A stretch of DNA of 43,202 nt from Chloroflexota bacterium (GCA_039804225.1 JBDLWN010000005.1:1-43202); one strand, 5' to 3'; shown: positions 6,117 through 23,876, numbered from the stretch's first letter. Notes: generated by a model not told the origin, from the sequence alone. Made by a program: numbers and translations.

Positions 6117-6707
6117 TTACACCCAGCGCAGCGCCGCCTGATCCCACGCGCCGACACAGAGCGCCGCAGCGTCACCCTCAACGTGGCGTTGCGTATCACG
6201 GAGCTCGCGGGCAGTGCCCTGCCACCCTGGAGCTTTTAGCGTGGGAGAGATGTCGGCAAGTGGTGCCAGAACAAAGAGGCGCGAAGCTGCTGCGGGATGT
6301 GGAACAACGAGAGGCCGATCTACATCAGCGCCATCTGGCTCAGTGCCGCGTGGTCGCGGATGTACAACCGCAATATTTTCCATCGCAATGATGTCAATAT
6401 CGAGCCGGCGTGGACCGAAGCGCACGGTCGGCACACGTCCGAAGAGCTGCTCAAGCTCTTTGACACGCGTGAGCACTTCAATGGCTGCCGCGGCCGGCTC
6501 TTCGGGAAGTGTCGCGCGCACTTGAAGTGCTGCGTTGAAAAACTCTGGCTGGTCAACGAGTCCGACTGGCGTGGTGCGATAGAGCGGCGAGACCCGCTCC
6601 ATCTTCCAGCCAGGAATGTGCGCGAGTGCGATCACCGCTTCGGCCAGCGTGGCGACAGGGTCGTCGAGATTGGCCCCGATTCCTAGGTGTACAACGAGCT
6701 GGCGCAT
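6117..6707 (-). CDS. folK: 2-amino-4-hydroxy-6-hydroxymethyldihydropterin pyrophosphokinase (HPPK)
   Basis: The layout LGIGANLDDP...SPLYRTTPVGLVDQPEFFNAALQV...FGPRRLDIDIIAM...LVVPHPAAASRLFVLAPLADISP is the canonical HPPK motif series (SxxYxTxPVG, QPxFxN, GPRxLDLDI, xPHPxxxxRxFVLxPL). Confidence 0.85.
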   Translation of the reverse strand: MRQLVVHLGIGANLDDPVATLAEAVIALAHIPGWKMERVSPLYRTTPVGLVDQPEFFNAALQVRATLPEEPAAAAIEVLTRVKELEQLFGRVPTVRFGPRRLDIDIIAMENIAVVHPRPRGTEPDGADVDRPLVVPHPAAASRLFVLAPLADISPTLKAPGWQGTARELRDTQRHVEGDAAALCVGAWDQAALRWV

Positions 6708-6741
6708 GTGCCCGACGGTAGCGCCGCGTAGGATCTACTGC

Positions 6742-7923
6742 ATGGAAGAGATAGAGCGTCTCATTCGCGACGAGGCCCAGCGCGAGGGTTCGATCAGCTT
6801 CGCGCGATTCATGGAGCGCGCCCTGCTCGAACCTGGGCTTGGCTACTACGCCACAGCGCAGCGTCGGGCGGGTCGCACCGGCGATTTCATGACCGCACCG
6901 GAGCTGCACCCCATCCTTGGCGCCGCCATCGCGCAACTGGCGGCTGCAACGTGGGAGCGCCTCGGTCGCCCCGCCACCTTCCGCTGGCGCGAGTACGGCG
7001 CCGGCGAGGGAACTCTCCTCCTAGCGGCACTCGACTATCTCGCTCGCGAGGGGCACCCCCTTCGCGGAGTGCTGGAGGTTTCGGTAAGTGAGGCAAACCC
7101 GCACCGCCTCGCCGATCTAACCGCGGCACTGGCAGCATTCCCGGGAGGAGGGCCACTCCTTGTCACGGCGGGGAGCCCACCCGTCGCCGGGATCGTGGTC
7201 GCCAATGAGTTCGCCGACGCCCTCCCCTTCCACATCGTGGTCGGTCGCGCCGCTGCCCCCGGGGGCTTCGCCGAGCGCCGTGTGGGGGTTGATGCTGTAA
7301 CAAATGCGCTCACCTGGGTCGAGGGGACACCCGACCCGGAGGTCGCCGCTCGGCTCACCTCCCTCATGGCCGGCTGGCCACCCCTGGCGGAGGGGCAGCT
7401 CGCCGAGATCTCGCCAGCCACCGCCGAGTGGGCCCACGGACTCGGAGGCGAACTCACCGAAGGGGTCGTCGTTGTGCTTGATTACGGTCGTGACGGGGTC
7501 GCCCTGCGTGACCCTGTCAGCCGCATGGCCGGAACTGCCCTCGCCTACCAGGGGCACCGAGCCACCGCCGATCTCCTTGGCGAGCCTGGGAGCCGCGACC
7601 TGACCGCCCATGTGGACCTCACCCTGCTACGGACGGCGGCGACAGCGGGTGGACTTCGTCACGTGGCGAGCACGAATCAGGCCAAGTTTCTTGCTACTGC
7701 GGGTGTTGATGGCGAGATTGCCCGAACGCGCACGGGACCGACGGCAACCCTCGAAGGGGCGATCGCCCTGCGCTCCGCACTTGCCCAACTGATGGACCCG
7801 CGCCGCATGGGCGGATTCGCCATCGAGGTGTTTGTGGCGGGGAGTTCTCCAGGGGCACATGCGCTCGCCGACCCTGTATCGCCGCTGCCTGGAACGGCGG
7901 CTCCGAATCGCCCCCTCGTCTAG
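6742..7923 (+). CDS. Class I SAM-dependent methyltransferase of the MidA/NDUFAF7 (DUF185) family
   Basis: ISFARFMERALLEPGLGYYA...GDFMTAPELHPILGAAIA...EYGAGEGTLLLAAL and ...DLTAHVDLTLL... match the MidA/NDUFAF7 family layout (YY..., GDFxTAPE, E.GxGxGxL, DxTAHVDF). ATG at 6742, divergent from folK with a 34-nt spacer. It ends 72 nt upstream of nuoA. Confidence 0.8.
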   Translation: MEEIERLIRDEAQREGSISFARFMERALLEPGLGYYATAQRRAGRTGDFMTAPELHPILGAAIAQLAAATWERLGRPATFRWREYGAGEGTLLLAALDYLAREGHPLRGVLEVSVSEANPHRLADLTAALAAFPGGGPLLVTAGSPPVAGIVVANEFADALPFHIVVGRAAAPGGFAERRVGVDAVTNALTWVEGTPDPEVAARLTSLMAGWPPLAEGQLAEISPATAEWAHGLGGELTEGVVVVLDYGRDGVALRDPVSRMAGTALAYQGHRATADLLGEPGSRDLTAHVDLTLLRTAATAGGLRHVASTNQAKFLATAGVDGEIARTRTGPTATLEGAIALRSALAQLMDPRRMGGFAIEVFVAGSSPGAHALADPVSPLPGTAAPNRPLV

Positions 7924-7995
7924 AATCTGAGCGTAATCACTCGAGCCCCCGCTACGGGGTACGCGCCGGGTTGATGGATCGAACGGGGGAGTTTC

Positions 7996-8352
7996 ATGAC
8001 CGGACTCTGGTATGTCCTCGGTTTCGCAGTCGCAGGCGCCTCCTTTGTTTTCCTTACCATCGGCCTCGCCTGGCTCATCTCCCATCGCACGCGCGGCAGC
8101 CGCGGCAAGCAGGTTCCCTACGAGTCGGGCATCGACACGTACGGCGACACCCACGGACGCTTCGGCCTCTCCTTCTATCTCTACGCGCTCCTCTTCGTCG
8201 CCTTCGACGTTGAGATCGTCTTCATCTACATCTGGGCACTGAACTTCAAGGTGCTCTTGTTCGACGGGCTCATCTCCATGGCGATCTTCATCGGCGTACT
8301 GCTCGTCGGACTCGCCTACGCATGGCGTAAGGGGGTCTTGGCATGGCGGTAA
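7996..8352 (+). CDS. nuoA: NADH-quinone oxidoreductase subunit A
   Basis: 118 aa, 3 [42 protein letters not shown] is the NuoA signature (YECG...F.V.FY..A..F..FDVE..F..PW). A GGGGGAG Shine-Dalgarno lies just upstream. Confidence 0.93.
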
Positions 8353-9050
8353 CACGCGATCCGAAGTTCAGCAACCTTCCTGAGGTTCAGCCAGATGGCA
8401 GTATTCAGTCGCCCACCACTGTCGGCAACACGCTGTGGAGCACCGACGACCCACGCGCATACGGCGGACTTCCACTTGAGGCACATCCGAACCTAGAGCT
8501 CGCGCGATACGACGCAACGGGCGACGGCCGCGTTGATGATGCACGCTGGGGCGGCGCGCTCTCTGCCATTCCAACAAAGGCCGACGTTGTGCTCGATCTG
8601 ATTCGCGCCAACAGCCTCTGGCCACTGCTCTCTGGTCTCGCCTGCTGCGCCATTGAGATGATGTCGACAGCAACGCCAAAGAACGACATTGATCGCTGGG
8701 GCATGTTCCCTTTCCGTGCCAGCCCACGTCAGGCCGACGTGTTGATCGTTGCCGGAACACTCACGACAAAAATGGCTGAGCCACTCATTCGCTTGTGGGA
8801 GCAGATGCCTGAACCGAAGTGGGTCGTTGCGATGGGCGACTGCACCTGCTCCGGTGGACGCTACAAGCGCAGCTACTCCGTGGTGCAGGGAATTGATCGC
8901 GTCATGCCTGTTGACGTGTACATCCCCGGGTGCCCACCGCGACCAGAGGGACTGATTTACGGAATGATGAAGTTGCAGCAGTTGGTAAAAGATCGACGCG
9001 GCCACTGGCCAGAGCGCGCGATCGGTCCAACAGTTCCGAAGGGGATCTAA
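8343..9050 (+). CDS. nuoB: NADH-quinone oxidoreductase subunit B (cluster N2), with an N-terminal extension of about 55 aa
   Basis: [41 protein letters not shown] and PGCPPRPE are all present, so all N2 Cys ligands are retained. The start ATG overlaps the nuoA stop by 10 nt. Confidence 0.93.
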
Positions 9051-9602
9051 GTGGATCGCCGACTCGCTGCGCTGTTGCAAGAGAAGGTTGGCGAGCGACT
9101 CCTTACACCGGTGCGCCAGCGATACGATGAGAGCGAAATCCGTGTGGCACTCAACGATGCGACCGACACGTTGCGCACGCTGCACGACGATCCATCGCTG
9201 CGATTTGAAATGCTGATTGACCTCTGCGGTGTTGATACCGGCGAAGAGATGCAGGTTGTGTATCACCTCTCCTCATCCACAAGTGGCGATTGGCTGCGTG
9301 TGATCGTTCCAGGCCTTGATCGCGCTGCGCCACGAATTGCTTCGGCAACATTCATGTGGCCAGGTGCTGAATGGATGGAGCGCGAGGCCTACGACATGTT
9401 CGGCATTATTTTTGAAGGGAATCGCGATTTGCGTCGTATCTACATGCCAGACGATTTCCGCAGCTTCCCGCTGCGCAAAGATTTCTATCTCGCTGACGAC
9501 GCATCACGCTCACCAGCGGCTGGCGTGCGCAACATGGAGCGCGCGGGAACACCGGCCGATGCAACCGCAGCAACAGTGCTGCGCAAGAGCCCAGGGGTAT
9601 AG
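9051..9602 (+). CDS. nuoC: NADH-quinone oxidoreductase subunit C
   Basis: The GTG start follows the nuoB stop directly. LIDLCGVD...VVYHL...WPGAEWMEREAYDMFGIIFEGNRDLRRIYMPDDF..FPLRKDF is the NuoC/30-kDa signature. Confidence 0.92.
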   Translation: MDRRLAALLQEKVGERLLTPVRQRYDESEIRVALNDATDTLRTLHDDPSLRFEMLIDLCGVDTGEEMQVVYHLSSSTSGDWLRVIVPGLDRAAPRIASATFMWPGAEWMEREAYDMFGIIFEGNRDLRRIYMPDDFRSFPLRKDFYLADDASRSPAAGVRNMERAGTPADATAATVLRKSPGV

Positions 9603-9604
9603 CG

Positions 9605-10816
9605 ATGACCCAGCAGATGCGCCCATCACTCGACGATCCGCGAGTAGCGATTCCCGCCGAATCAACGTGGTACGAGCCGGCGCCAATTCCACAAACGGAG
9701 CGACAGGCGGAGTTCCTCACGCTGCGTGAAGGCGAGATGTTTGTGAACATGGGGCCGCAGCACCCATCAACACACGGCGTGCTCCGCGTGATTATCAAGG
9801 TGAATGGCGAGAAAGTCGTTGACCTCGATCCGGTGCTCGGCTATCTGCACCGCGGCGTGGAGAAGCTTTGCGAGAACGCCGACTATCACCAGGCGATCTG
9901 CTACACCGACCCACTCGAATATGTGAGCTCGCTCTTCTGCGAAGCGGCACCAGTTGCCGCCTTTGAAAAGTTGATGGATGTTGATGTGCCACGCCGCGCG
10001 CAGTACATCCGCGTGCTAACGATGGAATTGAACCGCATCGCGAGCCACACCCTCTTTCAGGGGTGGATGGCGCTCGACCTCGGTGGCATCACGCCAATTC
10101 TCTGGGCATTCATTGAACGCGACGAGATCGTCGACATGCTTGCGGCCCTCACCGGCCAGAAGCTCCTCTACAACTACTACCGAATCGGCGGGGTGAACGG
10201 TGACTTGAACCACGAGTTCATGAGTCGTCTCGGCACCTGGATGAGCCGCGCCGCCGCTCAGATTGATTCAAACCTGGCCCTGATCAACGAGAACGAGATC
10301 TTCGTGCGGCGCACGCGCGGCCTCGGCGTTCTTGACGCAAAGACCGCCGTCAAAATGGGGGTCACCGGCCCAAACCTGCGCGCGAGCGGTGTGCCGTTTG
10401 ACCTGCGCCGCGACCGCCCGTATCTCGTCTACCCGGAGCTCGAATTCGACGTGCCAACGCGCGACGAGGGCGACTCGCTGGCGCGCTACCTGGTGCGCAT
10501 GGACGAGATCAAACAGTCGATCCGCATCATTGACCAGGTCCTTCACGAGATGCCCGATGGCCCAGTGATGGCGAAGTTGCCGCGCCTTCTTCGTCCGCGA
10601 CCGGGCCGCGCATTCGGCGCCGTTGAGGGGCCGCGCGGCGTCTATGGCACCTACGCCATTAGCGACGGCACCGATCAGCCATTCCGCATGCGCATTCACG
10701 ACCCATCATTTGTGCACCTGCAACTTGTTGGACCGCTCACCAAGGGGAATCTCATCGCCGACACCATGGCGGTGATGGCAAGCCTTGACCCAGTCATGGG
10801 CGGAGTCGACAAGTGA
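9605..10816 (+). CDS. nuoD: NADH-quinone oxidoreductase subunit D
   Basis: NMGPQHPSTHGVLRVIIKVNGEKVVDLDPVLGYLHRGVEKLCE... and the C-terminal IHDPSF..LQ...L.KG..IAD..A...SLDPVMGGVDK are the NuoD/49-kDa signature. Confidence 0.95.
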   Translation: MTQQMRPSLDDPRVAIPAESTWYEPAPIPQTERQAEFLTLREGEMFVNMGPQHPSTHGVLRVIIKVNGEKVVDLDPVLGYLHRGVEKLCENADYHQAICYTDPLEYVSSLFCEAAPVAAFEKLMDVDVPRRAQYIRVLTMELNRIASHTLFQGWMALDLGGITPILWAFIERDEIVDMLAALTGQKLLYNYYRIGGVNGDLNHEFMSRLGTWMSRAAAQIDSNLALINENEIFVRRTRGLGVLDAKTAVKMGVTGPNLRASGVPFDLRRDRPYLVYPELEFDVPTRDEGDSLARYLVRMDEIKQSIRIIDQVLHEMPDGPVMAKLPRLLRPRPGRAFGAVEGPRGVYGTYAISDGTDQPFRMRIHDPSFVHLQLVGPLTKGNLIADTMAVMASLDPVMGGVDK

Positions 10817-12153
10817 GCGGCGCATCAATGACGTGGAATCGACTGACGCCAGCCGGCCGCGCACTAGCGGTGCTGCTCCCCGTTCTCGCTATTGGTGGCG
10901 CGCTCACCACGCTCCTCCTCGCCACATTTGGTGGCGCTATCGCCGCAACAATTGGCGCAAATCTGCCGATCGTGCGCTTCCTCGTTGCCGCCGTTGTCAC
11001 CTTCCTCATCTCAGTGCCCGTTGCATTCCTCTTGATTTATATGGAGATGAAGATCATCGCGCTCATGAACTTGCGCATTGGACCCGATCGCATCGGACCA
11101 GCAGGCGCAGTGATGAGTGTGGTGCACGGCCTCAAGGTGCTCATGAAAGAGGACTACACGCCACCGAGCGTTGATGTGCCGGTCTTCACCCTTGCGCCTG
11201 TGGTCGTTTATCTCGCAAGTTTCATGACCCTGCTGGTGATTCCGTTTGCACCAGAGCTCACCAGTATGGGCTTCGAGCTTGGACTTCTCTACTTCTTCGC
11301 GATCGGTGGGCTCAGCGTCGTTGGCCTGATGATGGCGGGCTGGTCGTCGTTCAATAAGTACTCGCTGCTCGGCGGCATTCGCGCCGCAGCACAGGCTATC
11401 AGCTACGAGATTCCGCTGACCCTCTCTGTGGTGGGCATCGTGATCCTTACCGGCACGCTCTCACTACCGAAGATCGTCGCTGCACAAGATGGTTCGTTCC
11501 TTGACTGGTTCATCTTCCGCCAGCCACTTGCGGCGATCATCTTCTTTATCGCAATCACCGCAGAGGCAAACCGCACCCCGTTCGACAACGCCGAGGCCGA
11601 CCAAGAGATCGTTGCCGGGTTCGCCACCGAGTATTCGGGGATGCGCTTCGGATTCTTCTTCTTCGCGGAGTACGTCAACGTCTTCATCGTCTCGGCACTC
11701 TTTAGCGCCGTCTTCCTCGGTGGGTCAAACCCACCGATTCACATTGACCTGAATCCGCAGATCCTGATCGACCTCAGTGCGCTCGGCATCGGGCTGCCAC
11801 TCATTGCAGGTCTCGCACCAGTTGTGGGCACGCTGCTCTTCGCCGCACCGATCTGGTTCGCGAGTTCGCGCATCAAGGGTTGGCAGGCACTCGTTGCCGG
11901 ATTCCTGATCTTTGGTGGCGTGTCGACCGCAGCGGTCGGCATCTGGGCCTTTGTGATGCTTCCGCCAGTGGCCAGCCTCATCTGGTTCCTGATCAAAACC
12001 TTCTCGCTCGTCTTCATCTTTGTTTGGATGCGCGGCACACTGCCACGCGCACGCATTGACCAGCTGATGGGCTTCGCGTGGAAGTGGCTCTTGCCAGCAT
12101 CGCTGCTAAACATTTTTGCAACGGCGTTTGCCGTGCTGATTGCGGGGAGCTAA
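10813..12153 (+). CDS. nuoH: NADH-quinone oxidoreductase subunit H, enlarged to 446 aa
   Basis: RIGPDRIGPAGAVMSVVHGLKVLMKEDYTP, GWSSFNKYSLLGGIRAAAQAISYEIPL, TAEANRTPFDNAEADQEIVAGF.TEYSGMRFGFFFFAEY and WMRGTLPRARIDQLMGFAWKWLLP are NuoH motifs. The GTG at 10813 overlaps the nuoD stop (GTGA). Confidence 0.93.
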   Translation: MSGASMTWNRLTPAGRALAVLLPVLAIGGALTTLLLATFGGAIAATIGANLPIVRFLVAAVVTFLISVPVAFLLIYMEMKIIALMNLRIGPDRIGPAGAVMSVVHGLKVLMKEDYTPPSVDVPVFTLAPVVVYLASFMTLLVIPFAPELTSMGFELGLLYFFAIGGLSVVGLMMAGWSSFNKYSLLGGIRAAAQAISYEIPLTLSVVGIVILTGTLSLPKIVAAQDGSFLDWFIFRQPLAAIIFFIAITAEANRTPFDNAEADQEIVAGFATEYSGMRFGFFFFAEYVNVFIVSALFSAVFLGGSNPPIHIDLNPQILIDLSALGIGLPLIAGLAPVVGTLLFAAPIWFASSRIKGWQALVAGFLIFGGVSTAAVGIWAFVMLPPVASLIWFLIKTFSLVFIFVWMRGTLPRARIDQLMGFAWKWLLPASLLNIFATAFAVLIAGS

Positions 12154-12155
12154 CC

Positions 12156-12380
12156 ATGCCAAGAATTCCTGGCACCGGACTGCTATCGGGGATGCGCCTC
12201 ACACTGACGCGCTTCTTCCAGCCGAAGCGCACGGTGCTGTATCCGGAGGTGAAGCCAGACATTGCTCCGCGCAACCGTGGCCGACTCGAACTAGTCACCG
12301 ACGAGCACGGCACGCTGAAGTGCGAGACCTGTTTCCAGTGCGCGCAGGCATGCCCAATCGAATGCATTGACATGGGCGGC
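12156..12380 (+). other. NuoI N-terminal half-domain (amphipathic N-terminus plus the first CxxCxxCxxxCP, nt 12321-12356)
   Basis: See the parent CDS. Similarity to NuoI ends right after CPIECIDMGG; no second Cys motif follows in this ORF. Confidence 0.75.
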
Positions 12381-12977
12381 ACCGACACGAAGGGGCGCTT
12401 CGCCGTGCATTGGGGCCCCGCCGAACAGTACGCAGAGCGACGCGAAGAGTCGGCGATGCGCCGCTCCGGTCGAACCGTCTCTGATGCTGCTGCTGCAACT
12501 GGGGCGACGATCAACACCGCGAAGGTTGACGAGATTCTTGAAGCGCACGACTACGACCCGCATCACATGCTCGCAATCCTTGAAGAGATCCAGGCCGCCT
12601 ACGGCTACCTGCCAGTGGATGCACTGAAGCGAGTGAGCCGCGCTACCGGCGCCTGGTACGCCATGGTCTACGGCACCGCCACCTTCTATAAGCACCTCGC
12701 ATTCGAGCCAGGGGTGACCCGTTCGATCGCCGTCTGCCGCTGCGCTAACTGCCTCGTCTCTGGGGCGGGCTCAGTGATGGGCACCCTCAGCTACGAATTC
12801 GGCACCGAGTTCGGCCGGGCGATCCCGTGGAGCAACCTGCGCCTCGAGTCGCTTCCGAGCCACCTTCCTGACGCCCCATCGCCATTGGTCGTCATTGATG
12901 GGGAGCCGCAGCGTGACCTGAGTGCCAAGAACGCCGCCAGCTGGGCCGCCGCACTTGCCGGCAGGTACGCCGCATGA
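12156..12977 (+). CDS. nuoI-nuoE: Chimeric subunit: the N-terminal half of NuoI (first 4Fe-4S motif only) fused through a linker of about 45 aa to a NuoE-like thioredoxin-fold domain
   Basis: The ATG at 12156 lies 2 nt after the nuoH stop, with GGGGAG upstream. aa 1-75 read LTLTRFFQPKRTVLYPEVKPDIAPRNRGRLELV...KCETCFQCAQACPIECI, the NuoI N-terminus plus a single CxxCxxCxxxCP. aa ~122-273 read ILEAHDYDPHHMLAILEEIQAAYGYLPVDALKRVSRATGAWYAMVYGTATFYKHLAFEPGVTRSIAVCRCANC, the NuoE layout. The stop overlaps the next gene (ATGA). Confidence 0.85.
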   Translation: MPRIPGTGLLSGMRLTLTRFFQPKRTVLYPEVKPDIAPRNRGRLELVTDEHGTLKCETCFQCAQACPIECIDMGGTDTKGRFAVHWGPAEQYAERREESAMRRSGRTVSDAAAATGATINTAKVDEILEAHDYDPHHMLAILEEIQAAYGYLPVDALKRVSRATGAWYAMVYGTATFYKHLAFEPGVTRSIAVCRCANCLVSGAGSVMGTLSYEFGTEFGRAIPWSNLRLESLPSHLPDAPSPLVVIDGEPQRDLSAKNAASWAAALAGRYAA

Positions 12978-14233
12978 AGCGACTGAACGCCCCCAAGGGA
13001 TGGAGCCAGCTCCTCTTCGTGGCGCCGACCGAGCCGTGGGCGGCACTCCGCGCCGCCGCGTCGGCGGGGGCCGCTGGTACGACCGCAACCCTGATCGCCG
13101 CCGGCCTTCGCGGCCGTGGCGGCGGCGGCTTCCTTACTGGAGCTAAGTGGCAGGCGACCGCCGCCGAGCCAGCGAGCCAGTACTTCGCCGTGGCGAACGG
13201 CTACGAATCCGACCCCGCCGTCTTCACCAACCGCCTCCTCATGGAGGAGAATCCACAGGCAATTGTCGAAGGCCTCGCTATTGCTGCTCTTACGGTGGGT
13301 GCCCGCGAAGCGTTCATCGCCGTGCGCGCCGAATACACAGAAGCGATCAAACGACTTGAAGCGGTCATCGCCAACGCCGAACGCGAGGGCATCCTCGGGG
13401 CCACGCTGCTGGGCACCGGCCGCGAACTGATCATCACCGTTCGCCCACTCCAAGGCTCCAGCATGATCGGCGAAGAGACGGTGTTGATGAAGGCGCTCGC
13501 CGGCAAGCGCGGCCAGCCAGAGCAGACCCCGCCATACCCATCAGAGGTCGGCTACCTCGGCAAGCCAACCGCCGTGAACAACGTCGCCACACTCGCTGCG
13601 GTGCCGTGGATCCTCAACAACGGCGCAGAGGCCTTCGCACAGATTGGCGACTCCGCACAGCCAGGCACCGTGCTCGTGCAGATCAGTGGTTCGGTCGCGA
13701 ACCCTGGCGTCATTGAAGTACCGACCGGCACGCCACTCAACGAGATCATCGCGGCAGCGGGCGGCACTGCAAGCGGCGCTTCGATCAAGGCACTACTCGC
13801 TGGTGGGCCAACGGGCGGATTTATTCCGGCGAACCTTTTCGGCGGCACCCCCTATAGCGGCGCGGGCCTCAAGGGTGTTGGCGCACACATCGGCTCGGGC
13901 GCACTCCTCGCACTCGACAACTCGGTCGCCATTCCAGAGCTCGCCACCATGCTGACGCGCTGGTGTGCCGACGAGGCGTGCGGCAAGACCATTCCGTGCC
14001 GCATCGGCACACGCCGGCTCGCCGAGATCGGCCAGCGCTTTGTTGACGGCTTGGCCGGCCCCGCCGATGCAGAGCGGCTGCAGAAGCTCGCCGCCGATGT
14101 CACTGATAGCGCCCTCTGCGCACATGAGGCGCTTGCGCCAAGCCCGCTCCTCACGGGGGTGCGATACTTTGCCTCTGAGTTTGGACCTGCCGTTGCCGCA
14201 TCGTCGGCAACACCAACGAGCGGACGGAGCTGA
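12974..14233 (+). CDS. nuoF: NuoF-like (51-kDa/HydB/StnB-type) flavoprotein subunit, divergent
   Basis: GLRGRGGGGFLTGAKW, ANGYESDPAVFTNRLLME, GSSMIGEETVLMKALAGKRGQPEQTPPYP, GKPTAVNNVATLA and DEACGKTIPCRIG...ALCAHE align to the NuoF motif series (GLRGRGGAGFPTG, NADESEPG, GAGAYICGEE, RxKPPFP, PTxxNNVET, ESCGKCxPCREG...C). Several substitutions fall at ligand positions. Confidence 0.85.
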   Translation: MKRLNAPKGWSQLLFVAPTEPWAALRAAASAGAAGTTATLIAAGLRGRGGGGFLTGAKWQATAAEPASQYFAVANGYESDPAVFTNRLLMEENPQAIVEGLAIAALTVGAREAFIAVRAEYTEAIKRLEAVIANAEREGILGATLLGTGRELIITVRPLQGSSMIGEETVLMKALAGKRGQPEQTPPYPSEVGYLGKPTAVNNVATLAAVPWILNNGAEAFAQIGDSAQPGTVLVQISGSVANPGVIEVPTGTPLNEIIAAAGGTASGASIKALLAGGPTGGFIPANLFGGTPYSGAGLKGVGAHIGSGALLALDNSVAIPELATMLTRWCADEACGKTIPCRIGTRRLAEIGQRFVDGLAGPADAERLQKLAADVTDSALCAHEALAPSPLLTGVRYFASEFGPAVAASSATPTSGRS

Positions 14234-14235
14234 TC

Positions 14236-16782
14236 ATGGCCGACCTGATTGATCGACCGGCAAGCGCAGTAACACCAGTTTCGCGCACGATTACTCCAGC
14301 GCCACCGGCCGAGGTCGCCGTCGACAAGTTGCTCACCACACGCAGCCCACAACGACCGCAGCGAACGCCAACCTTCTACGTCGAGATCGATGGACAGAAG
14401 CTTGAAGCGTTTGAAGGACAGACCATCCTTGAGGTGTGCCGCGCGAACGGCATTGAGGTACCAACGCTCTGCTACGACCCGAAACTGCCAGGGTTCGGCG
14501 CCTGCCGCATGTGTGTCGTTGATGTCGAAGGATGCGACCAGCCTTCCATCAGCTGTTCAGCGAAGGCGGAGCCAGCACAGGTCGTATCAACGCAGACCGA
14601 TCGCATTCGCGAGATTCGCCGCACCAACCTTGAGCTGATCTTCAGCGACCACAACGCCTACTGCTTGCCGCCATGCCAGAACAAGTGCCCGAGCCACATT
14701 GACATCCCTGGATTCTTGAAGGCGAACGCAGAGTCGCAGTTCCGCGAGTCGGCGCGAATCTTCAAGCGCACCATTCCATTCCCAAGCATCCTTGGCCGCG
14801 TCTGTCCGGCGCCATGCGAAGACCACTGCCGTCGCGACGAGGTAGACGAGGCGATCGCCATTCGCGACAGCCACCGTTACGCCGGCGACCAGGTGTTGAA
14901 GGCAATGTGGGACGAAGATCTCGATCCACCTGTGCCGTTTGAGCTGCAGCCGAAGACTGGTAAGCGCGTCGCAGTGATTGGTTCTGGCCCAGCGGGCGCA
15001 TCTGCTGCGTACTACCTCCTTGTTGCTGGACATGACGTCACCATCTTTGAGAAAGATCCAGAGCCAGGTGGCATGTTGCGCTACGGCATTCCGCAGTACC
15101 GACTACCAAAGATTGAGGTGCTTGACGGCGAGTACCAGTCCATCACGCGACTCGGTGGCCGCTTTGAGTGCGGCAAGATGCTTGGCCGTGACTTCACCGT
15201 TGCTGACCTAAAGGCGCAGGGCTACGACGGCGTCGTTGTTGCAATCGGCTGCTACGACACCAACGACCTCGGCATCCCGGGCGAAGATGCCGACGGCGTG
15301 ATTGACGGCCTCGACTATCTCCACACCGCCGCACTCGGCCTCACCTACCCAGGTCACGAGGGGAGCCGCGTCGTTGTTGTTGGTGGCGGCTACACCTCCA
15401 TGGACTGCTCCCGAACGAGTGTGCGACAAGGGGCTAAGGAGGTCACCCTCGTCTACCGCCGCGACATGAAGGACATGCCAGCCGCCGACGAAGTGCACGA
15501 GATGATCGAAGAGGGGGCGCGCGCCATCTTCCAGGCAGGCCCAACCCGTGTCGTCACCGATGCGAACAACAAGGTGATTGGCCTCGAGTTCATTCGCATG
15601 CAGCTCGGCGCACCAGACGCTTCGGGCCGCCGCCGACCAGAGCCAGCACCCGGCACGGAATTCATTATCGAGTGCGACCGCATTTTGAAGGCGATCGGCC
15701 AGGGCCCCGACATGACCTGGGCAAGTGTCGGCGCAGATGGTGTTGCAACCACGAAGAACGGCCGACTTAAGGCAGATGCTGTGACCTTCCAGACCGGCCG
15801 CGACGGCGTCTTCGGCTGTGGCGACCTGCGCAATGGCGCAACAACCGTCGTCGCCTCGATCGCTGATGGCCGACGCTGCGCCTACGCCGTTGACGCATAT
15901 CTGCAGGGGCTCGACCTGTCGGAGATTCGCAACCGACAGACACTCGCTGAGCCACAGCCGGAGTTCTTGAGCATCGTGCCGTTCACCGCCGAGGTGAAGG
16001 AGCCGCGCTTGCGCCTGAAGGCACTTCCAGCCGAAGAGCGCAAGAACGACTACATCCAGTACGAAATCCCCTACACCAAGCCCGAGGTGATGGCGGAGAG
16101 CACACGTTGCTTGCAGTGCACCTGTGAAGCGATCGGCTTCTGTGACCTGCGACGACTCGGTATTGAATACGGCACCACACTGAAGACGCTTGAGAAGGAT
16201 CACCACGGCGGCGCTGGATTCCGTTCCATTACCGAAAACCGCTGGACCGGAGCAAACCATGACTACATTCGCGACGACTCGCACGCATTTATCTTGCGCG
16301 AGCCATCACGCTGCATCGACTGCGGTCGCTGCGCCAACGTGTGCGCCGAGGTTGTTGGTGCCGCCTGCTACGACTTCATGCGCACCGGTTTCGACACGCT
16401 CGTCACCACGCCGCTTGACATGAGCTTGAACGAGTCGCCATGCGTCTCGTGCGGACGATGTGCAGAAACCTGCCCAACCGGCGCACTGATGCCGAAGCCG
16501 CGAATTCTCACTAAGTACGAGGTCGACGAGTCGCGCTGCATCCTTTGCGGCATCTGCGTTGACGCTTGCCCATACGACGCGCTCCGTAGCGGCTTTGATT
16601 TTGAACTCGCGCACACCGATCGAAGCGAGCCGATGATTGACCTCATCGCGCTCTCAAAGTTGGAACGCACATCAGAGGCAACCTTCATTCGCGGCGAAGC
16701 AAACTGGGAGAACACCGTTGCGGGTCGACGCTACGATCCGGCACGACAGCTTCCGGTGCTGCCGCAGAGCCTCCGGAAGTAG
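14236..16782 (+). CDS. Chimeric 848-aa Fe-S flavoprotein, in order: NuoG/HoxU-type 2Fe-2S domain; GltD/NfnB-type FAD-NAD(P)H oxidoreductase; N5-like 4Fe-4S; hydrogenase-type 2x[4Fe-4S] domain; C-terminal half of NuoI. There is no molybdopterin-like domain.
   Basis: FYVEIDGQKLEAFEGQTILEVCRANGIEVPTLCYDPKLPGFGACRMCVVDVEG...SC = NuoG N-terminal 2Fe-2S. GRVCPAPCEDHC, KRVAVIGSGPAGASAAYYL, PGGMLRYGIPQYRLPK, VVVVGGGYTSMDCSRTSVRQGAKEVTLVYRR, GAPDASGRRRPEP and GVFGCGDLRNGATTVVASIADGR = GltD small-subunit series. CLQCTCEAIGFCDLRRLGIEYG (16108-) is N5-like. CIDCGRCANVC (16312-) plus CVSCGRCAETCPTGAL (16441-) form a HydA/HoxU-type dicluster. YEVDESRCILCGICVDACPYDALRSGFDFELAHTDRSE (16516-) is the NuoI second half. 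Confidence 0.85.
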   Translation: MADLIDRPASAVTPVSRTITPAPPAEVAVDKLLTTRSPQRPQRTPTFYVEIDGQKLEAFEGQTILEVCRANGIEVPTLCYDPKLPGFGACRMCVVDVEGCDQPSISCSAKAEPAQVVSTQTDRIREIRRTNLELIFSDHNAYCLPPCQNKCPSHIDIPGFLKANAESQFRESARIFKRTIPFPSILGRVCPAPCEDHCRRDEVDEAIAIRDSHRYAGDQVLKAMWDEDLDPPVPFELQPKTGKRVAVIGSGPAGASAAYYLLVAGHDVTIFEKDPEPGGMLRYGIPQYRLPKIEVLDGEYQSITRLGGRFECGKMLGRDFTVADLKAQGYDGVVVAIGCYDTNDLGIPGEDADGVIDGLDYLHTAALGLTYPGHEGSRVVVVGGGYTSMDCSRTSVRQGAKEVTLVYRRDMKDMPAADEVHEMIEEGARAIFQAGPTRVVTDANNKVIGLEFIRMQLGAPDASGRRRPEPAPGTEFIIECDRILKAIGQGPDMTWASVGADGVATTKNGRLKADAVTFQTGRDGVFGCGDLRNGATTVVASIADGRRCAYAVDAYLQGLDLSEIRNRQTLAEPQPEFLSIVPFTAEVKEPRLRLKALPAEERKNDYIQYEIPYTKPEVMAESTRCLQCTCEAIGFCDLRRLGIEYGTTLKTLEKDHHGGAGFRSITENRWTGANHDYIRDDSHAFILREPSRCIDCGRCANVCAEVVGAACYDFMRTGFDTLVTTPLDMSLNESPCVSCGRCAETCPTGALMPKPRILTKYEVDESRCILCGICVDACPYDALRSGFDFELAHTDRSEPMIDLIALSKLERTSEATFIRGEANWENTVAGRRYDPARQLPVLPQSLRK
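14644..15915 (+). other. GltD/NfnB-like flavoprotein module inserted inside the NuoG-like Fe-S chain
   Basis: It begins at SDHNAYCLPPCQNKCPSHIDIPGFL. Here a NuoG-type HxxxC runs straight into the GltD-type C...CP...IP motif. It ends near ADGRRCAYAVDAYLQGL. Two Rossmann GxGxxG/A motifs are present (14968-, ~15370-). Confidence 0.8.
16498..16782 (+). other. NuoI C-terminal half-domain (second CxxCxxCxxxCP, nt 16537-16572, plus the FE.A...R tail)
   Basis: YEVDESRCILCGICVDACPYDALRSGFDFELAHTDRSEPMIDL follows the canonical NuoI pattern Y.ID...CI.CG.C.EACP.DAI.....FE.A...R..L. Confidence 0.75.
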
Positions 16783-16785
16783 CCT

Positions 16786-17346
16786 ATGCCGCTCCCCGAC
16801 GTCATCCCGTTTATCGGCCTCGGCTGGTCAGACGTCCTCTTCTTACTGCTGAGCGGCGTAGTCCTTGCCGCAGCGATCGGCGTGGTCTTTGGCCGTGACA
16901 TCATCAAGAGCGGCTTATTCTTGATCCTCACCCTTGGCGCACTCGCAGGTATCTACGTAATGTTGGGCGCCGCGATCGTTGCGGGCGCACAGGTGCTCGT
17001 CTACATCGGTGCAATCAGTGTGCTCATCCTTTTTGCCATCATGCTCACGCAGTCAAAGGTTGCGCCAGTAAAGCTGGCGTTCCAGACACAGGTGGCGCCT
17101 GCCGCCCTTGCCTCGGTCCTACTCGCTGTGATCTTCGGCCTCGCGTTTGGAAGCACAGACTGGGGCTCATCAGTGTTCGCCGATACGCCAGCCGCAACTG
17201 GTACGGCCCCTGTTGCCGCCGCACTCTTCGGCCCGTACCTGCTTGCATTTGAGATCGCAAGCGTGCTCATCCTCTCTGCCGTGATAGGTGGCCTCTATCT
17301 CGCGATGGAACCAAAGACGGACGAAGTGGGCGAGGAGGGGCAGTGA
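16786..17346 (+). CDS. nuoJ: NADH-quinone oxidoreductase subunit J
   Basis: 186 aa, 5 TM. AGAQVLVYIGAISVLILFAIMLT is the NuoJ signature (AxxQxxVYxGAxxVLxxFVxMxL). It starts 3 nt after the upstream stop. Confidence 0.9.
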   Translation: MPLPDVIPFIGLGWSDVLFLLLSGVVLAAAIGVVFGRDIIKSGLFLILTLGALAGIYVMLGAAIVAGAQVLVYIGAISVLILFAIMLTQSKVAPVKLAFQTQVAPAALASVLLAVIFGLAFGSTDWGSSVFADTPAATGTAPVAAALFGPYLLAFEIASVLILSAVIGGLYLAMEPKTDEVGEEGQ

Positions 17347-17663
17347 GCCAAATCGCTGGGAACCTGGAGCCATATCTCGTCCTCTCAGGGATGCTCTTTG
17401 CTATCGGCTCCTTCGGCTTCCTTGCACGTCGAAACGCAATCACGATGTTGATGAGTATTGAGTTGATGCTGAATGCCGTGAACCTTGCCGCACTCGCGTT
17501 CGGCGCATTTATTCCGACACTCGCAGGGGAGGGGGCAGCCTTTGCGCTGTTGATTATCGCCGTGGCGGCGGCTGAGGCCACCGTCGGCCTGGCGATCGTG
17601 ATTGCCATCTTCCGTAACCGGAAGACACCGCTGGTTGACGAGTACGACACGATGAGGCAGTAG
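17343..17663 (+). CDS. nuoK: NADH-quinone oxidoreductase subunit K
   Basis: 106 aa, 3 TM. RRNAITMLMSIELMLNAVNLAALAF...IAVAAAEATVGLAIVIAIFRNRKT is the NuoK signature, including both conserved Glu. GTGA overlap with nuoJ. Confidence 0.92.
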   Translation: MSQIAGNLEPYLVLSGMLFAIGSFGFLARRNAITMLMSIELMLNAVNLAALAFGAFIPTLAGEGAAFALLIIAVAAAEATVGLAIVIAIFRNRKTPLVDEYDTMRQ

Positions 17664-17666
17664 CGG

Positions 17667-19616
17667 ATGATCACTGCAGAGACCCTGGTCGAAGCGGGCG
17701 CCCTTCCGGGCTACGCGCCGCTCCTCCTTCTCCTCCCGCTGCTCGGCTTCGCCTTCACGGCGGCGGTTGGCCGACGCCTCGGCAAACTGGCCCACATCGT
17801 GCCGCTCGGGGCGATCGTCGCCACCTGGGCACTCTCCATGAGCCTGGCGATCCCCGCCCTCACAGGGGGCCTCGGTGAGGCGGGTGCCTCGATGAAGCTC
17901 TTCACCTGGATCGCCTCGGGCGACCTGAGCTTCGGGCTCGGCCTGCACGTCGACGCCCTTACGGGAGCCCTCCTTCTCGTAGTAACCACGGTCGGCGCCC
18001 TCGTGCACCTCTATAGCGTCGGCTACATGAGTCACGACAACGGCTATTGGCGCTTCTTCGCCTACCTGAACCTCTTCATGTTCTCAATGATGCTCCTCGT
18101 TCTCGCCGATAACCTCCTCGTCGTCTTTGCCGCCTGGGAGCTCGTCGGCCTCTCCTCGTACCTGCTGATCGGCTTCTGGTACACGAAGACCGCACCAGGC
18201 TTGGCCGCCAAGAAGGCCTTCATTACAAACCGAGTCGGTGACGTTGGCTTCGTTCTCGGACTGATGGGTCTCGTGGTCGTCTTCGGCTCACTCGACATCA
18301 GTACGGTGCTTGCGGGGGTTGTAGCGGGCGAGCTCGTTGGTCCAGCAGCGACGGTGATTGCCTTACTGATCTTCTGCGGCGCGGTTGGGAAGTCGGCGCA
18401 GTTCCCACTTCACGTCTGGCTCCCCGACGCCATGGAGGGGCCAACTCCGGTCAGCGCCCTCATCCACGCAGCGACCATGGTGAACGCGGGCGTCTATCTC
18501 GTGGCACGAATGAGCCCACTCTTCGCTGCAAGCCCTGAGGCAATGATCATTGTTGCCGCAATCGGCATCTTCACCGCGATCTTCGCGGCCTCAATTGCGC
18601 TCACGCAGACCGACATCAAGCGCGTGCTCGCCTTCTCAACCCTCTCGCAGCTCGGCTACATGTTTGCCGCACTCGGTGTTGGTGCCTGGGTTCCCGCAAT
18701 CTTCCATCTCGTCACGCACGGATTCTTCAAGGGGCTCCTCTTCCTCGGCTCAGGTTCGGTGATTCATGCGGTGAACGGCGAGCAAGAGATGACAAAGATG
18801 GGTGGCCTCTGGCGCAAGATTCCTATTACGTACGCCACGATGTTGGTCGGAACCGTAGCGATTGCTGGCCTACCGCCACTCGCCGGGTTCTGGTCAAAAG
18901 ACGAAATTCTCACCGAAGCATTCAAATTTGGATACGCGTGGGTGTGGCTCGTCGGCATGATCGTTGCCGCCATGACCGCCTTCTACATGTTCCGTCTCAT
19001 GGGACTCACCTTCTGGGGGAAGAGCCGCGTGCATGACGAATCACATGTACACGAATCGCCATGGACGATGACGCTGCCGCTGATCATTCTGGCGGTGCCA
19101 TCGATTGCCATTGGCGCAGCACTCGGCTTCCCAGTCGCAGACGGCGTCATTGTGCATGCGCTTGAACCAATCTTCCATCCGGCGGATGAGATACTCGGCA
19201 TCGAACATAAGCCTTGGGAACTGTTTGGCATCGGCGGACTTCTCATGCTTGGGAGCGTTACCGTTGCCTCAATCGGCACAGCGGTCGGCGTGCGCCTCTT
19301 CCGCAGTGACAACAACGAGTTCCTTGGTCGCGTCACCAAGCGCTTGCAGCCGCTCTACGACGGAAGCCGCAACCGTTGGTACTTTGACGACCTCAATGAT
19401 CTCGTATTCGTGCGCTTTGGACGAAAGTTTTCGAACGCACTCTGGTGGTTTGACCGCCGCGTTGTTGACGGCACTGTGAACGGCGTTGCTTCGCTCACTT
19501 CGAGTGGCGGTCGCGGCTTGCGGCAGATCCAAACCGGTCGCGTGCAAAACTATGCACTCGGCATCGCATTTGGCCTTGTGGCCATTGCTGCCGCTTACCT
19601 GGTGATTGCGGGATGA
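17667..19616 (+). CDS. nuoL: NADH-quinone oxidoreductase subunit L (antiporter-like, with C-terminal lateral helix region)
   Basis: 649 aa. WELVGLSSYLLIGFWY, GKSAQFPLHVWLPDAMEGPTPVSALIHAATMVNAGVYL and FSTLSQLGYMF are NuoL/Mrp-type motifs. Confidence 0.93.
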   Translation: MITAETLVEAGALPGYAPLLLLLPLLGFAFTAAVGRRLGKLAHIVPLGAIVATWALSMSLAIPALTGGLGEAGASMKLFTWIASGDLSFGLGLHVDALTGALLLVVTTVGALVHLYSVGYMSHDNGYWRFFAYLNLFMFSMMLLVLADNLLVVFAAWELVGLSSYLLIGFWYTKTAPGLAAKKAFITNRVGDVGFVLGLMGLVVVFGSLDISTVLAGVVAGELVGPAATVIALLIFCGAVGKSAQFPLHVWLPDAMEGPTPVSALIHAATMVNAGVYLVARMSPLFAASPEAMIIVAAIGIFTAIFAASIALTQTDIKRVLAFSTLSQLGYMFAALGVGAWVPAIFHLVTHGFFKGLLFLGSGSVIHAVNGEQEMTKMGGLWRKIPITYATMLVGTVAIAGLPPLAGFWSKDEILTEAFKFGYAWVWLVGMIVAAMTAFYMFRLMGLTFWGKSRVHDESHVHESPWTMTLPLIILAVPSIAIGAALGFPVADGVIVHALEPIFHPADEILGIEHKPWELFGIGGLLMLGSVTVASIGTAVGVRLFRSDNNEFLGRVTKRLQPLYDGSRNRWYFDDLNDLVFVRFGRKFSNALWWFDRRVVDGTVNGVASLTSSGGRGLRQIQTGRVQNYALGIAFGLVAIAAAYLVIAG

Positions 19617-21124
19617 ACGACATGCCGATCCTGTCGCTGATCACCTTCCTTCCGCTCCTTGGCGCGCTCGGCATCGCAGCACTCCCATCGTCACGTCCGA
19701 GCCTGATTCGTTTTGCTGCACTCGGGGTGTCACTGATCACCTTCGCACTGAGCCTCGGCATGCTGGTTGGCATTCGCGGCCAGAGTGGTGAATTTGCCTT
19801 CAGCGAACAGCTCTCGTGGATTCCATCGTTCGGCATCACGTATCACCTTGGTGTGGACGGGCTCTCTGGCGCACTTGTTGTCTTGACGACGCTGCTCAGC
19901 TGGATCTGCATCCTGGCGAGCTTCGGTCCAATTCAGACTCGCGTGAAGGAGTACTTCATTAGCTTCCTCATCCTCGAGACGGGCATGCTCGGTGTCTTCT
20001 TGGCGCTCGACCTATTCCTCTTCTACATCTTCTGGGAGATCGTGCTCGTGCCGATGTATCTGATCATCGGCATCTGGGGCGGGGCCGACCGCATCTACGC
20101 CACAATCAAGTTCGTCCTCTACACGCTCGTTGGATCACTCCTCATGCTTGTAGCGATCCTGGCGACGGCCTTTAGCCATCAGGCCGCGACAGGCTCATGG
20201 ACCGGGGCGTTCGACTTGCTGGCGTTGCGGGGCACGATCACCGATCCAACGCTGCAGATCCTCGGGTTTGCCGCCTTCGCGCTCGCCTTTGCCATCAAGG
20301 TGCCAATGTTCCCGTTCCATACGTGGCTCCCCGATGCGCACGTACAGGCCCCAACCGCAGGCTCGGTCATCCTCGCCGGCGTGCTCTTGAAGCTTGGCGG
20401 CTACGGCTTCATTCGATTTGCGATCCCGCTCTTCCCAGACGGCGCGCAGCTCTTCGCGCCGCTCATGATCGTTCTCTCGGTGATCGCCATCATCTATGGC
20501 GCACTTGTGGCGATCGTGCAGACCGACCTCAAGAAACTTATCGCGTATAGCTCCGTTAGCCACATGGGCTTCGTAACGCTCGGCATCTTCACCTTCAATC
20601 AGCAGGGTGTCGACGGCGCAATCTTGCAGATGCTTAACCACGGCCTCATCACGAGCGGACTCTTCTTGCTCGTCGGAATTGGCTACGAACGCACCCATGA
20701 TCGCGAGATCGCCAAGATGGGCGGCTGGGCGGTGCGCACCCCCGTGTACGCTGCGCTCTTCGGCTTCTTTCTCTTCGCGTCAGTTGGCCTTCCTGGCCTC
20801 TCGGGCTTCGCTGGTGAATTCCTGGTGCTGCTCGGAGCCTTCATCGCCAACCCAATGGTCGCAGGTGCATCAACAGTTGTGATGATCCTTGCTGCGGTCT
20901 ACTTGCTCTACATGTACCAGCGCGTCTTCACCGGACCACTCTCACCGTTCTTAAAGGGTCTCGGCTCAAAGCTGACCGATGTCACACCAACCGAGATCTT
21001 GACGCTCGCCCCCCTTGCGGCGCTGGTCGTGATCTTTGGTGTAATGCCAACGCTGTTGACGAGCTCTTTTGCAAAAAGCGTTGAGATCTTCCTGATGTCA
21101 GCTATCAGTGTGGTCGGACCATGA
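19613..21124 (+). CDS. nuoM: NADH-quinone oxidoreductase subunit M
   Basis: 503 aa. FYIFWEIVLVPMYLIIGIWGG, KVPMFPFHTWLPDAHVQAPTAGSVILAGVLLKLGGYG and IAYSSVSHMGFV. ATGA overlap with nuoL. Confidence 0.93.
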   Translation: MNDMPILSLITFLPLLGALGIAALPSSRPSLIRFAALGVSLITFALSLGMLVGIRGQSGEFAFSEQLSWIPSFGITYHLGVDGLSGALVVLTTLLSWICILASFGPIQTRVKEYFISFLILETGMLGVFLALDLFLFYIFWEIVLVPMYLIIGIWGGADRIYATIKFVLYTLVGSLLMLVAILATAFSHQAATGSWTGAFDLLALRGTITDPTLQILGFAAFALAFAIKVPMFPFHTWLPDAHVQAPTAGSVILAGVLLKLGGYGFIRFAIPLFPDGAQLFAPLMIVLSVIAIIYGALVAIVQTDLKKLIAYSSVSHMGFVTLGIFTFNQQGVDGAILQMLNHGLITSGLFLLVGIGYERTHDREIAKMGGWAVRTPVYAALFGFFLFASVGLPGLSGFAGEFLVLLGAFIANPMVAGASTVVMILAAVYLLYMYQRVFTGPLSPFLKGLGSKLTDVTPTEILTLAPLAALVVIFGVMPTLLTSSFAKSVEIFLMSAISVVGP

Positions 21125-23756: not shown

Positions 23757-23876
23757 CGCGCCAATTTGATGCTCGCCGCCTGGCGTGAAACGGGCGGTTA
23801 GTGAAGGCGGACTCACAGGTGTGAGCTCGCAAAGCGGAATGGTCGCGTAAGCGACAGAGAAAGGGGTAACAGGGAA

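Follow-up and report, generated by a model that had tools for sequence, protein, structure and literature searches.

The 11-subunit relatives of complex I, such as cyanobacterial NDH-1 with ferredoxin and Fpo with FpoF, combine a common membrane and Q-module core with an electron entry other than NuoEFG, and in mbx-like operons a GltD-like flavoprotein replaces NuoI, which provides a precedent for a GltD-type NAD(P)H flavoprotein beside a complex I-like membrane arm (Degli Esposti 2015, PMC4758237). Also close are Nuo-Bfu and Mbh-Bfu, predicted membrane-bound Bfu enzymes in which a Bfu-type module stands amid complex I or Mbh genes as a proposed replacement of NuoEFG; Nuo-Bfu, a 14-subunit operon whose B subunit carries the full Bfu cluster set, has been reported from Deferribacteres, Proteobacteria, Planctomycetes and Nitrospirae, not from Limnocylindria, and neither a split NuoI nor a GltD-like domain is mentioned for it (PMC9304861). 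Here, we describe a complex I (nuo) operon in a 43,202-nucleotide stretch of DNA from a Chloroflexota bacterium (GCA_039804225.1 JBDLWN010000005.1:1-43202), hereafter the window. By homology, two separate genes of this operon each supply one half of the core Fe-S subunit NuoI, fused in either case to a subunit of the module that sits between the halves, and the nested genes of that module derive from the NfnABC/StnABC (Bfu) transhydrogenase family.

The locus differs from each of its closest relatives in a particular way. In contrast to NDH-1, Fpo and the mbx-like operons, the module appears to be built in through the NuoI fold, neither docking on an intact NuoI nor replacing NuoI. Both halves are colinear with NuoI (Nqo9/TYKY, NDUFS8; clusters N6a and N6b), with the eight cysteines, the N-terminal helix, the YPE...RxRG segment and the nuoH-nuoJ position all present, whereas the fold is cut, in the loop between the two NuoI Cys motifs, into two polypeptides that are each fused to a redox protein and encoded 4.1 kb apart. 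With NfnABC/StnABC (PDB 9bov/9bp5, 9n5u, 8oh5), the module shares homology in all three subunits, the order of their genes (C-like, B-like, A-like) and, in the third protein, an architecture of [2Fe-2S] domain, GltD-like flavin adenine dinucleotide (FAD)/NADPH domain and two-cluster domain over about 730 residues. However, NfnABC and StnABC are soluble, whereas the genes here place the module on a membrane complex; moreover, its A subunit is without the formate dehydrogenase-like domain, its B subunit is without the ferredoxin-like, hinge and N-terminal domains, and its C1 ligands are altered. Because the extra domains of Bfu B are absent and the C1 ligands altered, bifurcation to ferredoxin is unlikely. 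The searchable full-text literature yielded no description of a split NuoI, and the arrangement suggests that an electron-input module can be coupled to complex I in a manner not described before.

One tightly packed operon on the + strand spans positions 7996-22560 of the window (open reading frame [ORF] reading), with the following genes:

7996-8352, + strand: nuoA (ORF and NCBIfam match)
8343-9050, + strand: nuoB (ORF and NCBIfam match)
9051-9602, + strand: nuoC (ORF and NCBIfam match)
9605-10816, + strand: nuoD (ORF and NCBIfam match)
10813-12153, + strand: nuoH (ORF and NCBIfam match)
12156-12977, + strand: P1, 273 aa, candidate NuoI N-terminal half (I') fused to a NuoE/BfuC-like domain
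12974-14233, + strand: P2, 419 aa, NuoF/BfuB-like core
14236-16782, + strand: P3, 848 aa, NfnA/StnC-type body with candidate NuoI C-terminal half (I'')
16786-17346, + strand: nuoJ (ORF and NCBIfam match)
17343-17663, + strand: nuoK (ORF and NCBIfam match)
17667-19616, + strand: nuoL (ORF and NCBIfam match)
19613-21124, + strand: nuoM (ORF and NCBIfam match)
21121-22560, + strand: nuoN (ORF and NCBIfam match)

The core of an 11-subunit-type complex I is present in this one operon, with NCBIfam matches for all ten of nuoA, B, C, D, H, J, K, L, M and N. On sequence reading, NuoB is of the N2 type, with the tandem-Cys motif GLACCAIEM, and NuoD carries QHPSTHGV and GYLHRG and is without NiFe cysteines. 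nuoH directly follows nuoD, with no canonical nuoEFG in between (ORFs 7996-12153), and the NuoE, NuoF and NuoG equivalog scores of the three nested genes all fall far below the NCBIfam cutoffs, so that no canonical N-module is recognized among them. The junctions of the nested genes are tight: the nuoH stop TAA (12151-12153) is followed two bases on by the P1 ATG at 12156, with a GGGGAG box before it; P1 and P2 overlap by ATGA at 12974-12977; two bases separate the P2 stop TGA at 14233 from the P3 ATG at 14236; and the P3 stop TAG at 16782 lies three bases before the nuoJ ATG at 16786. A mechanical ORF list offers GTG at 12078 as an alternative upstream start of P1, and all homologues begin at the ATG position. 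The coordinates, two-nucleotide spacers and ATGA overlap set out in the initial annotation were recovered unchanged on re-reading the ORF ends. Two of the flanking subunits are enlarged. Compared to the NuoH of three related loci (L088, L086 and L095), NuoH (446 aa, 10813-12153) is longer by ~45 residues at its N-terminus and by a hydrophobic insertion of ~75 residues, and NuoB (8343-9050) has a ~75-residue N-terminal extension ahead of its conserved core; these extensions may be adaptations to an unusual peripheral arm.

The NuoI-like segments at the two ends of the nested genes are as follows:

12156-12440, + strand: I', NuoI N-terminal half (by homology), P1 residues 1-95, with amphipathic helix, P.T..YPE...R.RG segment and Cys motif d
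12321-12356, + strand: Cys motif d, P1 C56, C59, C62 and C66-P
16492-16782, + strand: I'', NuoI C-terminal half (by homology), P3 residues 753-848, with motif c, NuoI-type FELA segment and tail
16537-16572, + strand: Cys motif c, P3 C768, C771, C774 and C778-P

A six-frame regular-expression scan of the whole window found exactly four CxxCxxCxxxC motifs, at 12321 (d), 16312 (a), 16441 (b) and 16537 (c), in agreement with the initial annotation. Because these are the only such motifs, there is no intact nuoI in the 43 kb of the window, a result that covers the window and that upholds the earlier statement that none lies between nuoH and nuoJ. Rather than both CxxCxxCxxxCP motifs on one polypeptide, P1 carries one and the second NuoI-type motif stands at the end of P3. 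On the curated NCBIfam model of NuoI (TIGR01971, 121 positions), P1 residues 12-76 match positions 1-64 (42 bits) and P3 residues 756-802 match positions 71-117 (50.2 bits); the split of nuoI put forward in the initial annotation is thus confirmed on non-overlapping, colinear parts of the model. P1 also matches positions 14-85 of NF004536. The two proteins are likewise complementary on solved chains, the same chain being matched on its N-terminal half by P1 and on its C-terminal half by the P3 tail: residues 7-89 and 84-129 of Mycobacterium smegmatis NuoI (8e9g_I), 7-96 and 85-128 of Thermus thermophilus Nqo9 (2fug_9), and 18-81 and 91-138 of 8qby_I (named NADH-quinone oxidoreductase subunit I in the PDB). 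When joined (P1 1-88 + P3 753-848), the halves align as one unbroken stretch to NuoI/TYKY chains (E ~1e-18; e.g., query 7-139 on 7ar7_I 21-144) and cover TIGR01971 positions 1-117 of 121 at 92.7 bits, near the sum of the separate scores (42 + 50.2). Polyferredoxins outrank NuoI in some of the searches with single or joined halves because one motif matches many repeats; NuoI is best for single-stretch matches, which extend past the motif into the NuoI-specific FELA segment. The position is also that of NuoI, with I' right after nuoH and I'' right before nuoJ, here and in related loci. The closest intact NuoI cluster representatives (P0247 and P0262) are 44-45% identical to I' and stand in ordinary gene contexts. 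P1 has an extra cysteine, C70 (12363-12365), four residues past the Cys-Pro of motif d (CPIEC), at a position that is Ala in NuoI; this residue is 99% conserved in Limnocylindria, Ala in the related loci L086 and L088 and Cys in L090.

The remainder of P3 consists of these features:

14236-16491, + strand: NfnA/StnC-type body, P3 residues 1-752 (Pfam/NCBIfam and alignment to solved chains)
P3 aa 49-121: [2Fe-2S] domain
P3 aa 143-557: GltD-like 2x[4Fe-4S] + FAD + NAD(P)H domain, 415 residues
P3 aa 625-636: CxxCxCx5C site
16312-16344 (motif a) and 16441-16476 (motif b), + strand: HydA-type two-cluster domain

P3 residues 49-779 align to residues 6-700 of NfnA from Caldicellulosiruptor saccharolyticus (9bov_A, E 4.5e-165), and P3 also aligns to residues 6-701 of StnC from Sporomusa ovata (8oh5_C, E 1.3e-142) and to NfnA from Thermococcus sibiricus (9n5u_A). 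It has the full Nfn-type BfuA architecture, that is, a [2Fe-2S] domain, an inserted GltD-like FAD/NADPH domain with two [4Fe-4S] clusters and a two-cluster domain; the motifs VAVIGSGPAG and VVVVGGG...VYRR are invariant, and all cluster cysteines are 100% conserved. Because of the 415-residue GltD-like FAD/NAD(P)H domain, which the initial annotation had not seen, P3 is NfnA/StnC-like rather than NuoG-like. The E/F/G-type module described in that annotation is therefore correct as to the nesting of three genes and not as to type, which is Nfn/Stn (Bfu) with a GltD-like domain and altered E/F cluster ligands. No Molybdopterin Pfam match, the sign of a formate dehydrogenase-like (molybdopterin-fold) domain, is found in P3, which ends 70 residues past motif c; the alignment to StnC halts at residue 701 of 1172, and the NuoI half stands where StnC has its formate dehydrogenase-like domain. 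By alignment, the counterpart of motifs a and b in solved structures is the two-cluster domain of StnC, NfnA and HydA. Since a and b form a complete two-cluster domain in these solved homologues, motif c is without a partner inside P3. The cluster arithmetic proposed earlier thereby holds for a + b and for the unpaired state of c, and the co-folding of c with d is what we infer from sequence.

The rest of P1 is a linker and a C-like subunit:

12441-12977, + strand: linker and NuoE/BfuC-like domain, P1 residues 96-273, four-helix bundle and thioredoxin-like fold (Pfam PF01257 at residues 125-261)

Among solved chains, this E-like part is closest in sequence to HydC, NfnC and StnA, and its predicted fold agrees: an AlphaFold2 model of P1 alone, built with 68 homologues, gave the domain a predicted local distance difference test score (pLDDT) of 73-96, and a Foldseek search with the model returned only NuoE, HydC and NfnC chains. 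A linker of about 25 residues tethers the BfuC-like domain to the NuoI half. In the same model, residues 22-115 have pLDDT <50, so that I', the best-conserved part of P1, is unfolded there, as would be compatible with, although no proof of, a half-fold that needs a partner. The domain has lost the second Cys pair (CxxxC) of its [2Fe-2S] site, leaving it short of two of the four cysteines of a BfuC-type C1 cluster; C194, C196, C199 and H236 are invariant. Of these, C196 is an extra cysteine and H236 a histidine beside C194/C199 (P1 194-236, 12735-12866), and a Cys3His-ligated cluster in P1 is possible.

P2 has its best matches in HydB, NfnB and StnB (E about 1e-88), over the core only (HydB residues 160-526 of 599). 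Its Pfam domains are Complex1_51K, SLBB and NADH_4Fe-4S, with no extra domain, and it falls short of a full BfuB in that the N-terminal thioredoxin-like (B5), B2/Zn hinge and C-terminal ferredoxin-like (B3, B4) domains are missing. The family-wide N3/B1 motif, ACGKTIPC, has Thr at the position of the second Cys of NuoF/HydB, and its cluster may be a [3Fe-4S] cluster or have a ligand other than Cys. Cysteine C331, which lies upstream, is present in only 70% of members (P2 331-382, 13964-14122). P2 keeps GRGGxGF, GEET and three invariant cluster cysteines, and NADE is changed to NGYE. Of the Bfu signatures around flavin mononucleotide (FMN) and NADH, AFM is changed to VFT, the FxCGEE loop has exchanged its Phe for Ser in the window and for Tyr in the family consensus, and the GGPSG loop is kept in the family consensus and in most members (GGPTG in the window).

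The arrangement recurs widely. Contigs in JGI, ENA and NCBI assemblies carry a P1 of identical sequence in an unchanged gene order; four independent assemblies show the same D-H-[I'E]-F-[G'GltD-I'']-J-K order, and a P1 relative at 60% identity stands in the same order on a 3.68 Mb chromosome (OY970306.1). A scan of one genome per species found P1 relatives in at least 543 genomes, and all 80 of the 80 listed are Chloroflexota (Candidatus Limnocylindrus, Limnocylindrales, Aquidulcis and other metagenome-assembled genomes [MAGs]); the window itself is 99% identical to a Ca. Limnocylindrus MAG. With tblastn of the window proteins against 85 loci, every contig of sufficient length showed the order nuoD-nuoH-[I'E]-F-[G'GltD-I'']-nuoJ-nuoK, and this order occurs in about 70 species-level loci; the initial annotation had suggested a search for such synteny. 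The four cysteines of motif d are 100% invariant, as are those of motifs a, b and c, sixteen in all. Source annotation labels P1 relatives as "NAD(P)H-dependent oxidoreductase subunit E," "HndA" or "formate dehydrogenase subunit gamma" and nothing else, without calling a NuoI. In one MAG (CAVORL010000001.1, locus L046, about 12400-13500), P3 reads in frame into nuoJ with no stop, a P3::NuoJ fusion that is either real or a sequencing error.

Ratios of nonsynonymous to synonymous substitution (dN/dS) were calculated by the Nei-Gojobori method against four relatives; with dS about 1, the values are approximate:

I' (NuoI N-half, P1): 0.045-0.10
I'' (NuoI C-half, P3): 0-0.054
a/b domain of P3: 0.005-0.023
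GltD-like domain of P3: 0.02-0.057
P3 residues 1-752, overall span: 0.005-0.075
nuoD: 0.04-0.06
P2: 0.15-0.18
E-like part of P1: 0.12-0.23

Both NuoI halves are under strong purifying selection, on a level with nuoD or below it, which places them with the most tightly constrained parts of the operon. With intact frames and dN/dS far below 1 throughout, the operon looks designed rather than decayed, as had been suggested.

P1-like fusions also occur at 31-39% identity among cluster representatives, in distant relatives outside the main group. In L086 (359-11571), the order is nuoH, I'::E, a 1048-residue protein composed of a thioredoxin-like [2Fe-2S] domain, NuoF and a GltD-like domain, a 265-residue HoxU-like protein that carries motifs a, b and c and ends in c and the NuoI tail, and nuoJ-N. 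All canonical cysteines are kept there, including the four of the NuoE-like domain, and the joined halves reach 110.2 bits where the NuoI cutoff is 113. This layout is rare: a search with the HoxU-like::I'' protein found one further member in 5.8 billion proteins, the other listed matches being, by their Pfam domains, molybdopterin-type NuoG/FdhA-like fragments or [FeFe]-hydrogenase-type proteins. In L088 (a Chloroflexota MAG, 6481-14281), L090 (4693-12917) and L091 (3414-11638), nuoA-B-C-D-H are followed by I'::E, F and a P3-like protein, with no nuoJ-K-L-M-N downstream; either the membrane arm is encoded elsewhere, or these are smaller complexes without antiporter-like subunits. The genes that come next in L088 are those for a flavin reductase, a ferredoxin and subunits of pyruvate:ferredoxin oxidoreductase, and the P1 homologue of L088 has lost its thioredoxin-like half altogether. 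We rejected an assignment of L088 and L090 to the Mbh-Bfu hydrogenases of Schut et al., as their NuoD is without NiFe cysteines and their NuoB has an N2-type CC motif. The recurrence of the same NuoI pair on different carrier proteins in L086, L088 and L090 supports the view that the halves function together.

Taken together, these data suggest that the operon probably encodes a proton-pumping, non-bifurcating enzyme that passes electrons from NADPH and NADH to quinone and is fastened to the Q-module through an N6a/N6b domain built of two chains. Each cluster of a 2x[4Fe-4S] ferredoxin fold is held by three cysteines of one motif and the Cys-Pro cysteine of the other. P1 would give the N-terminal half of NuoI, with the membrane-surface helix and the first Cys motif, and P3 the C-terminal half, with the second Cys motif and the NuoI tail. 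Motifs d and c would build N6a and N6b from these two chains, because the fold swaps its Cys-Pro cysteines, d and c are left over, and their flanks are the NuoI halves; the resulting domain would tie both carrier proteins covalently to the Q-module. NADPH would bind P3 at the FAD of the GltD-like domain and NADH would bind P2 at FMN, with P2 held by the E-like part of P1, and electrons would leave from a/b through N6a/N6b and N2 in NuoB to quinone, with proton pumping coupled to this path. In the Stn enzyme, the path runs FAD-C7-C6-C5-C4-C3-B1-FMN, and a side branch through C1 and C2 toward the dead FdhF-like domain is regarded by the authors of the structure as a non-functional remnant (PMC10482914). 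Because a NuoI half replaces the formate dehydrogenase-like domain, the branch beyond a/b that ends in the dead domain in StnABC would here become the productive exit. Bifurcation in Nfn-Bfu needs FMN, B1 and a C1 cluster with four Cys ligands, ferredoxin being bound between the domain of BfuC and the ferredoxin-like domain of BfuB (PMC12018979), and the absence of B2-B5 marks non-bifurcating homologues (Schut et al. 2022, PMC9304861). A non-bifurcating enzyme is favored here because the B3/B4 domain is absent, AFM is changed to VFT, and the C1 ligands are changed.

Several observations weigh against this proposal. The score of the joined halves (92.7 bits) is below the curated NuoI cutoff of 113.05 bits, and those of the single halves are lower still. 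AlphaFold2 run on the joined halves from a single sequence with no alignment gave a pLDDT of 32.6, which is uninformative on c + d co-folding. Pfam reports b + c as a generic dicluster domain (Fer4_7, P3 residues 736-782), and the 22-residue spacing from b to c would, on sequence reading, suit a clostridial ferredoxin. The absence of an intact nuoI covers the 43 kb window, so that a second copy elsewhere in the genomes is possible. Finally, the NADH arm may be impaired, given the faster evolution of P2 and the E-like part (dN/dS 0.12-0.23) and the loss of canonical cluster ligands from both.

Taken further, this last point would make NADPH the sole physiological donor, with P2 and the E-like domain kept as a scaffold and NADH no longer oxidised, in possible analogy to StnC, which likewise needs its dead FdhF domain for assembly. 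The contrast in constraint within the module argues for it: P3 is its most conserved part (72-77% identity to a distant clade versus 47-60% for P2 and 48-55% for the E-part; dN/dS of 0.02-0.06 versus 0.12-0.23), and one N3/B1 Cys is Thr, NADE is NGYE, the N1a/C1 ligands are gone, and the L088 homologue of P1 has dispensed with its thioredoxin-like half. Yet P2 is under clear purifying selection and retains its GRGGxGF and GEET motifs along with the three cluster cysteines, and the altered residues are conserved family-wide, which suggests changed rather than lost function. On balance, we regard an NADPH-only enzyme as unlikely.

The homology to bifurcating enzymes raises a second alternative, namely, that the split-NuoI complex is an energy-coupled three-way junction in which the FMN site bifurcates or confurcates and the N6a/N6b-N2 chain replaces ferredoxin as third partner; for example, reverse flow from quinol driven by the proton-motive force could, together with NADH, reduce NADP+, as in a membrane-coupled Nfn transhydrogenase. 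P1, P2 and P3 are all closest to bifurcating Bfu enzymes (HydABC, NfnABC, StnABC), most members keep the GGPSG loop typical of Bfu B subunits, the BfuC-like domain would be mobile on its ~25-residue linker to the NuoI half, and the module combines NADH and NADPH sites. Against this stand the loss from P2 of the ferredoxin-like B3/B4, B2/Zn hinge and N-terminal domains, the VFT in place of AFM and the Ser or Tyr in place of the FxCGEE Phe, and a C1 cluster short of two of four cysteines; a lack of B2-B5 is, again, what sets non-bifurcating homologues apart (Schut et al., PMC9304861). Such a junction therefore seems distinctly improbable. Its broader form, that in Limnocylindria and a few other lineages an Nfn-type module built into complex I through a two-chain NuoI serves as an NADPH/NADH/quinone junction coupled to the proton pump, is doubtful. 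If it were true, energy would be conserved from NADPH oxidation, the membrane potential could set the NADPH/NADH ratio in the manner of a membrane-coupled transhydrogenase, and the split Fe-S fold would represent a general principle for docking new input modules.

It is far less probable that b and c form a self-contained ferredoxin domain, with the NuoI-like N-terminus of P1 a mere anchor or remnant and an intact NuoI elsewhere serving the membrane arm. The Fer4_7 match, the clostridial-type spacing and the restriction of the nuoI search to the window speak for this. However, we regard the Fer4_7 match as generic because a b + c pairing would strand motifs a and d, even though all sixteen cysteines are invariant; moreover, a and b pair in the solved homologues, the flanks of c are NuoI-specific and colinear with those of d, I' is constrained (dN/dS 0.045-0.10), and the same pair of halves occurs in distant lineages on different carriers. 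An assembly chimera or a decaying operon is ruled out by the identical locus in JGI, ENA and NCBI assemblies, the 3.68 Mb chromosome and the low dN/dS.

The preferred reading, a non-bifurcating NADPH- and NADH:quinone oxidoreductase held by a two-chain NuoI, touches two old questions: the origin of complex I input modules and what feeds 11-subunit enzymes without NuoEFG. It would offer a natural, strongly conserved case of an Nfn/Stn-type module with an NADPH site that is attached by sharing the NuoI fold between two chains and not by docking, and it predicts an NADPH-linked proton-pumping complex I in Limnocylindria. These bacteria are widespread in freshwater and soil and, as a class, are among the most abundant bacteria of lakes and soils. 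The arrangement is hidden by current annotation because P1 is named only as subunit E of an NAD(P)H-dependent oxidoreductase or as HndA and NuoI is not called, and genome-based metabolic models have here a reason not to score Limnocylindria as NuoI-deficient. The putative two-chain 2x[4Fe-4S] domain represents a defined target for structural biology, and the finding as a whole bears on the complex I and flavin-based bifurcation fields.

Two further features lie on either side of the operon. Upstream, a gene for a 1293-residue ORF (25-3906), with a weak PMT (protein O-mannosyltransferase-like) match in its middle only, precedes the operon also in near-identical assemblies. Downstream, a gene run at 23085-29151 resembles a phosphatidylinositol(-mannoside) lipid pathway, better known from Actinobacteria, with a myo-inositol-1-phosphate synthase, a lipid A-type acyltransferase, a GT4 glycosyltransferase and, by reading of its sequence motif, a CDP-alcohol phosphatidyltransferase-like protein.

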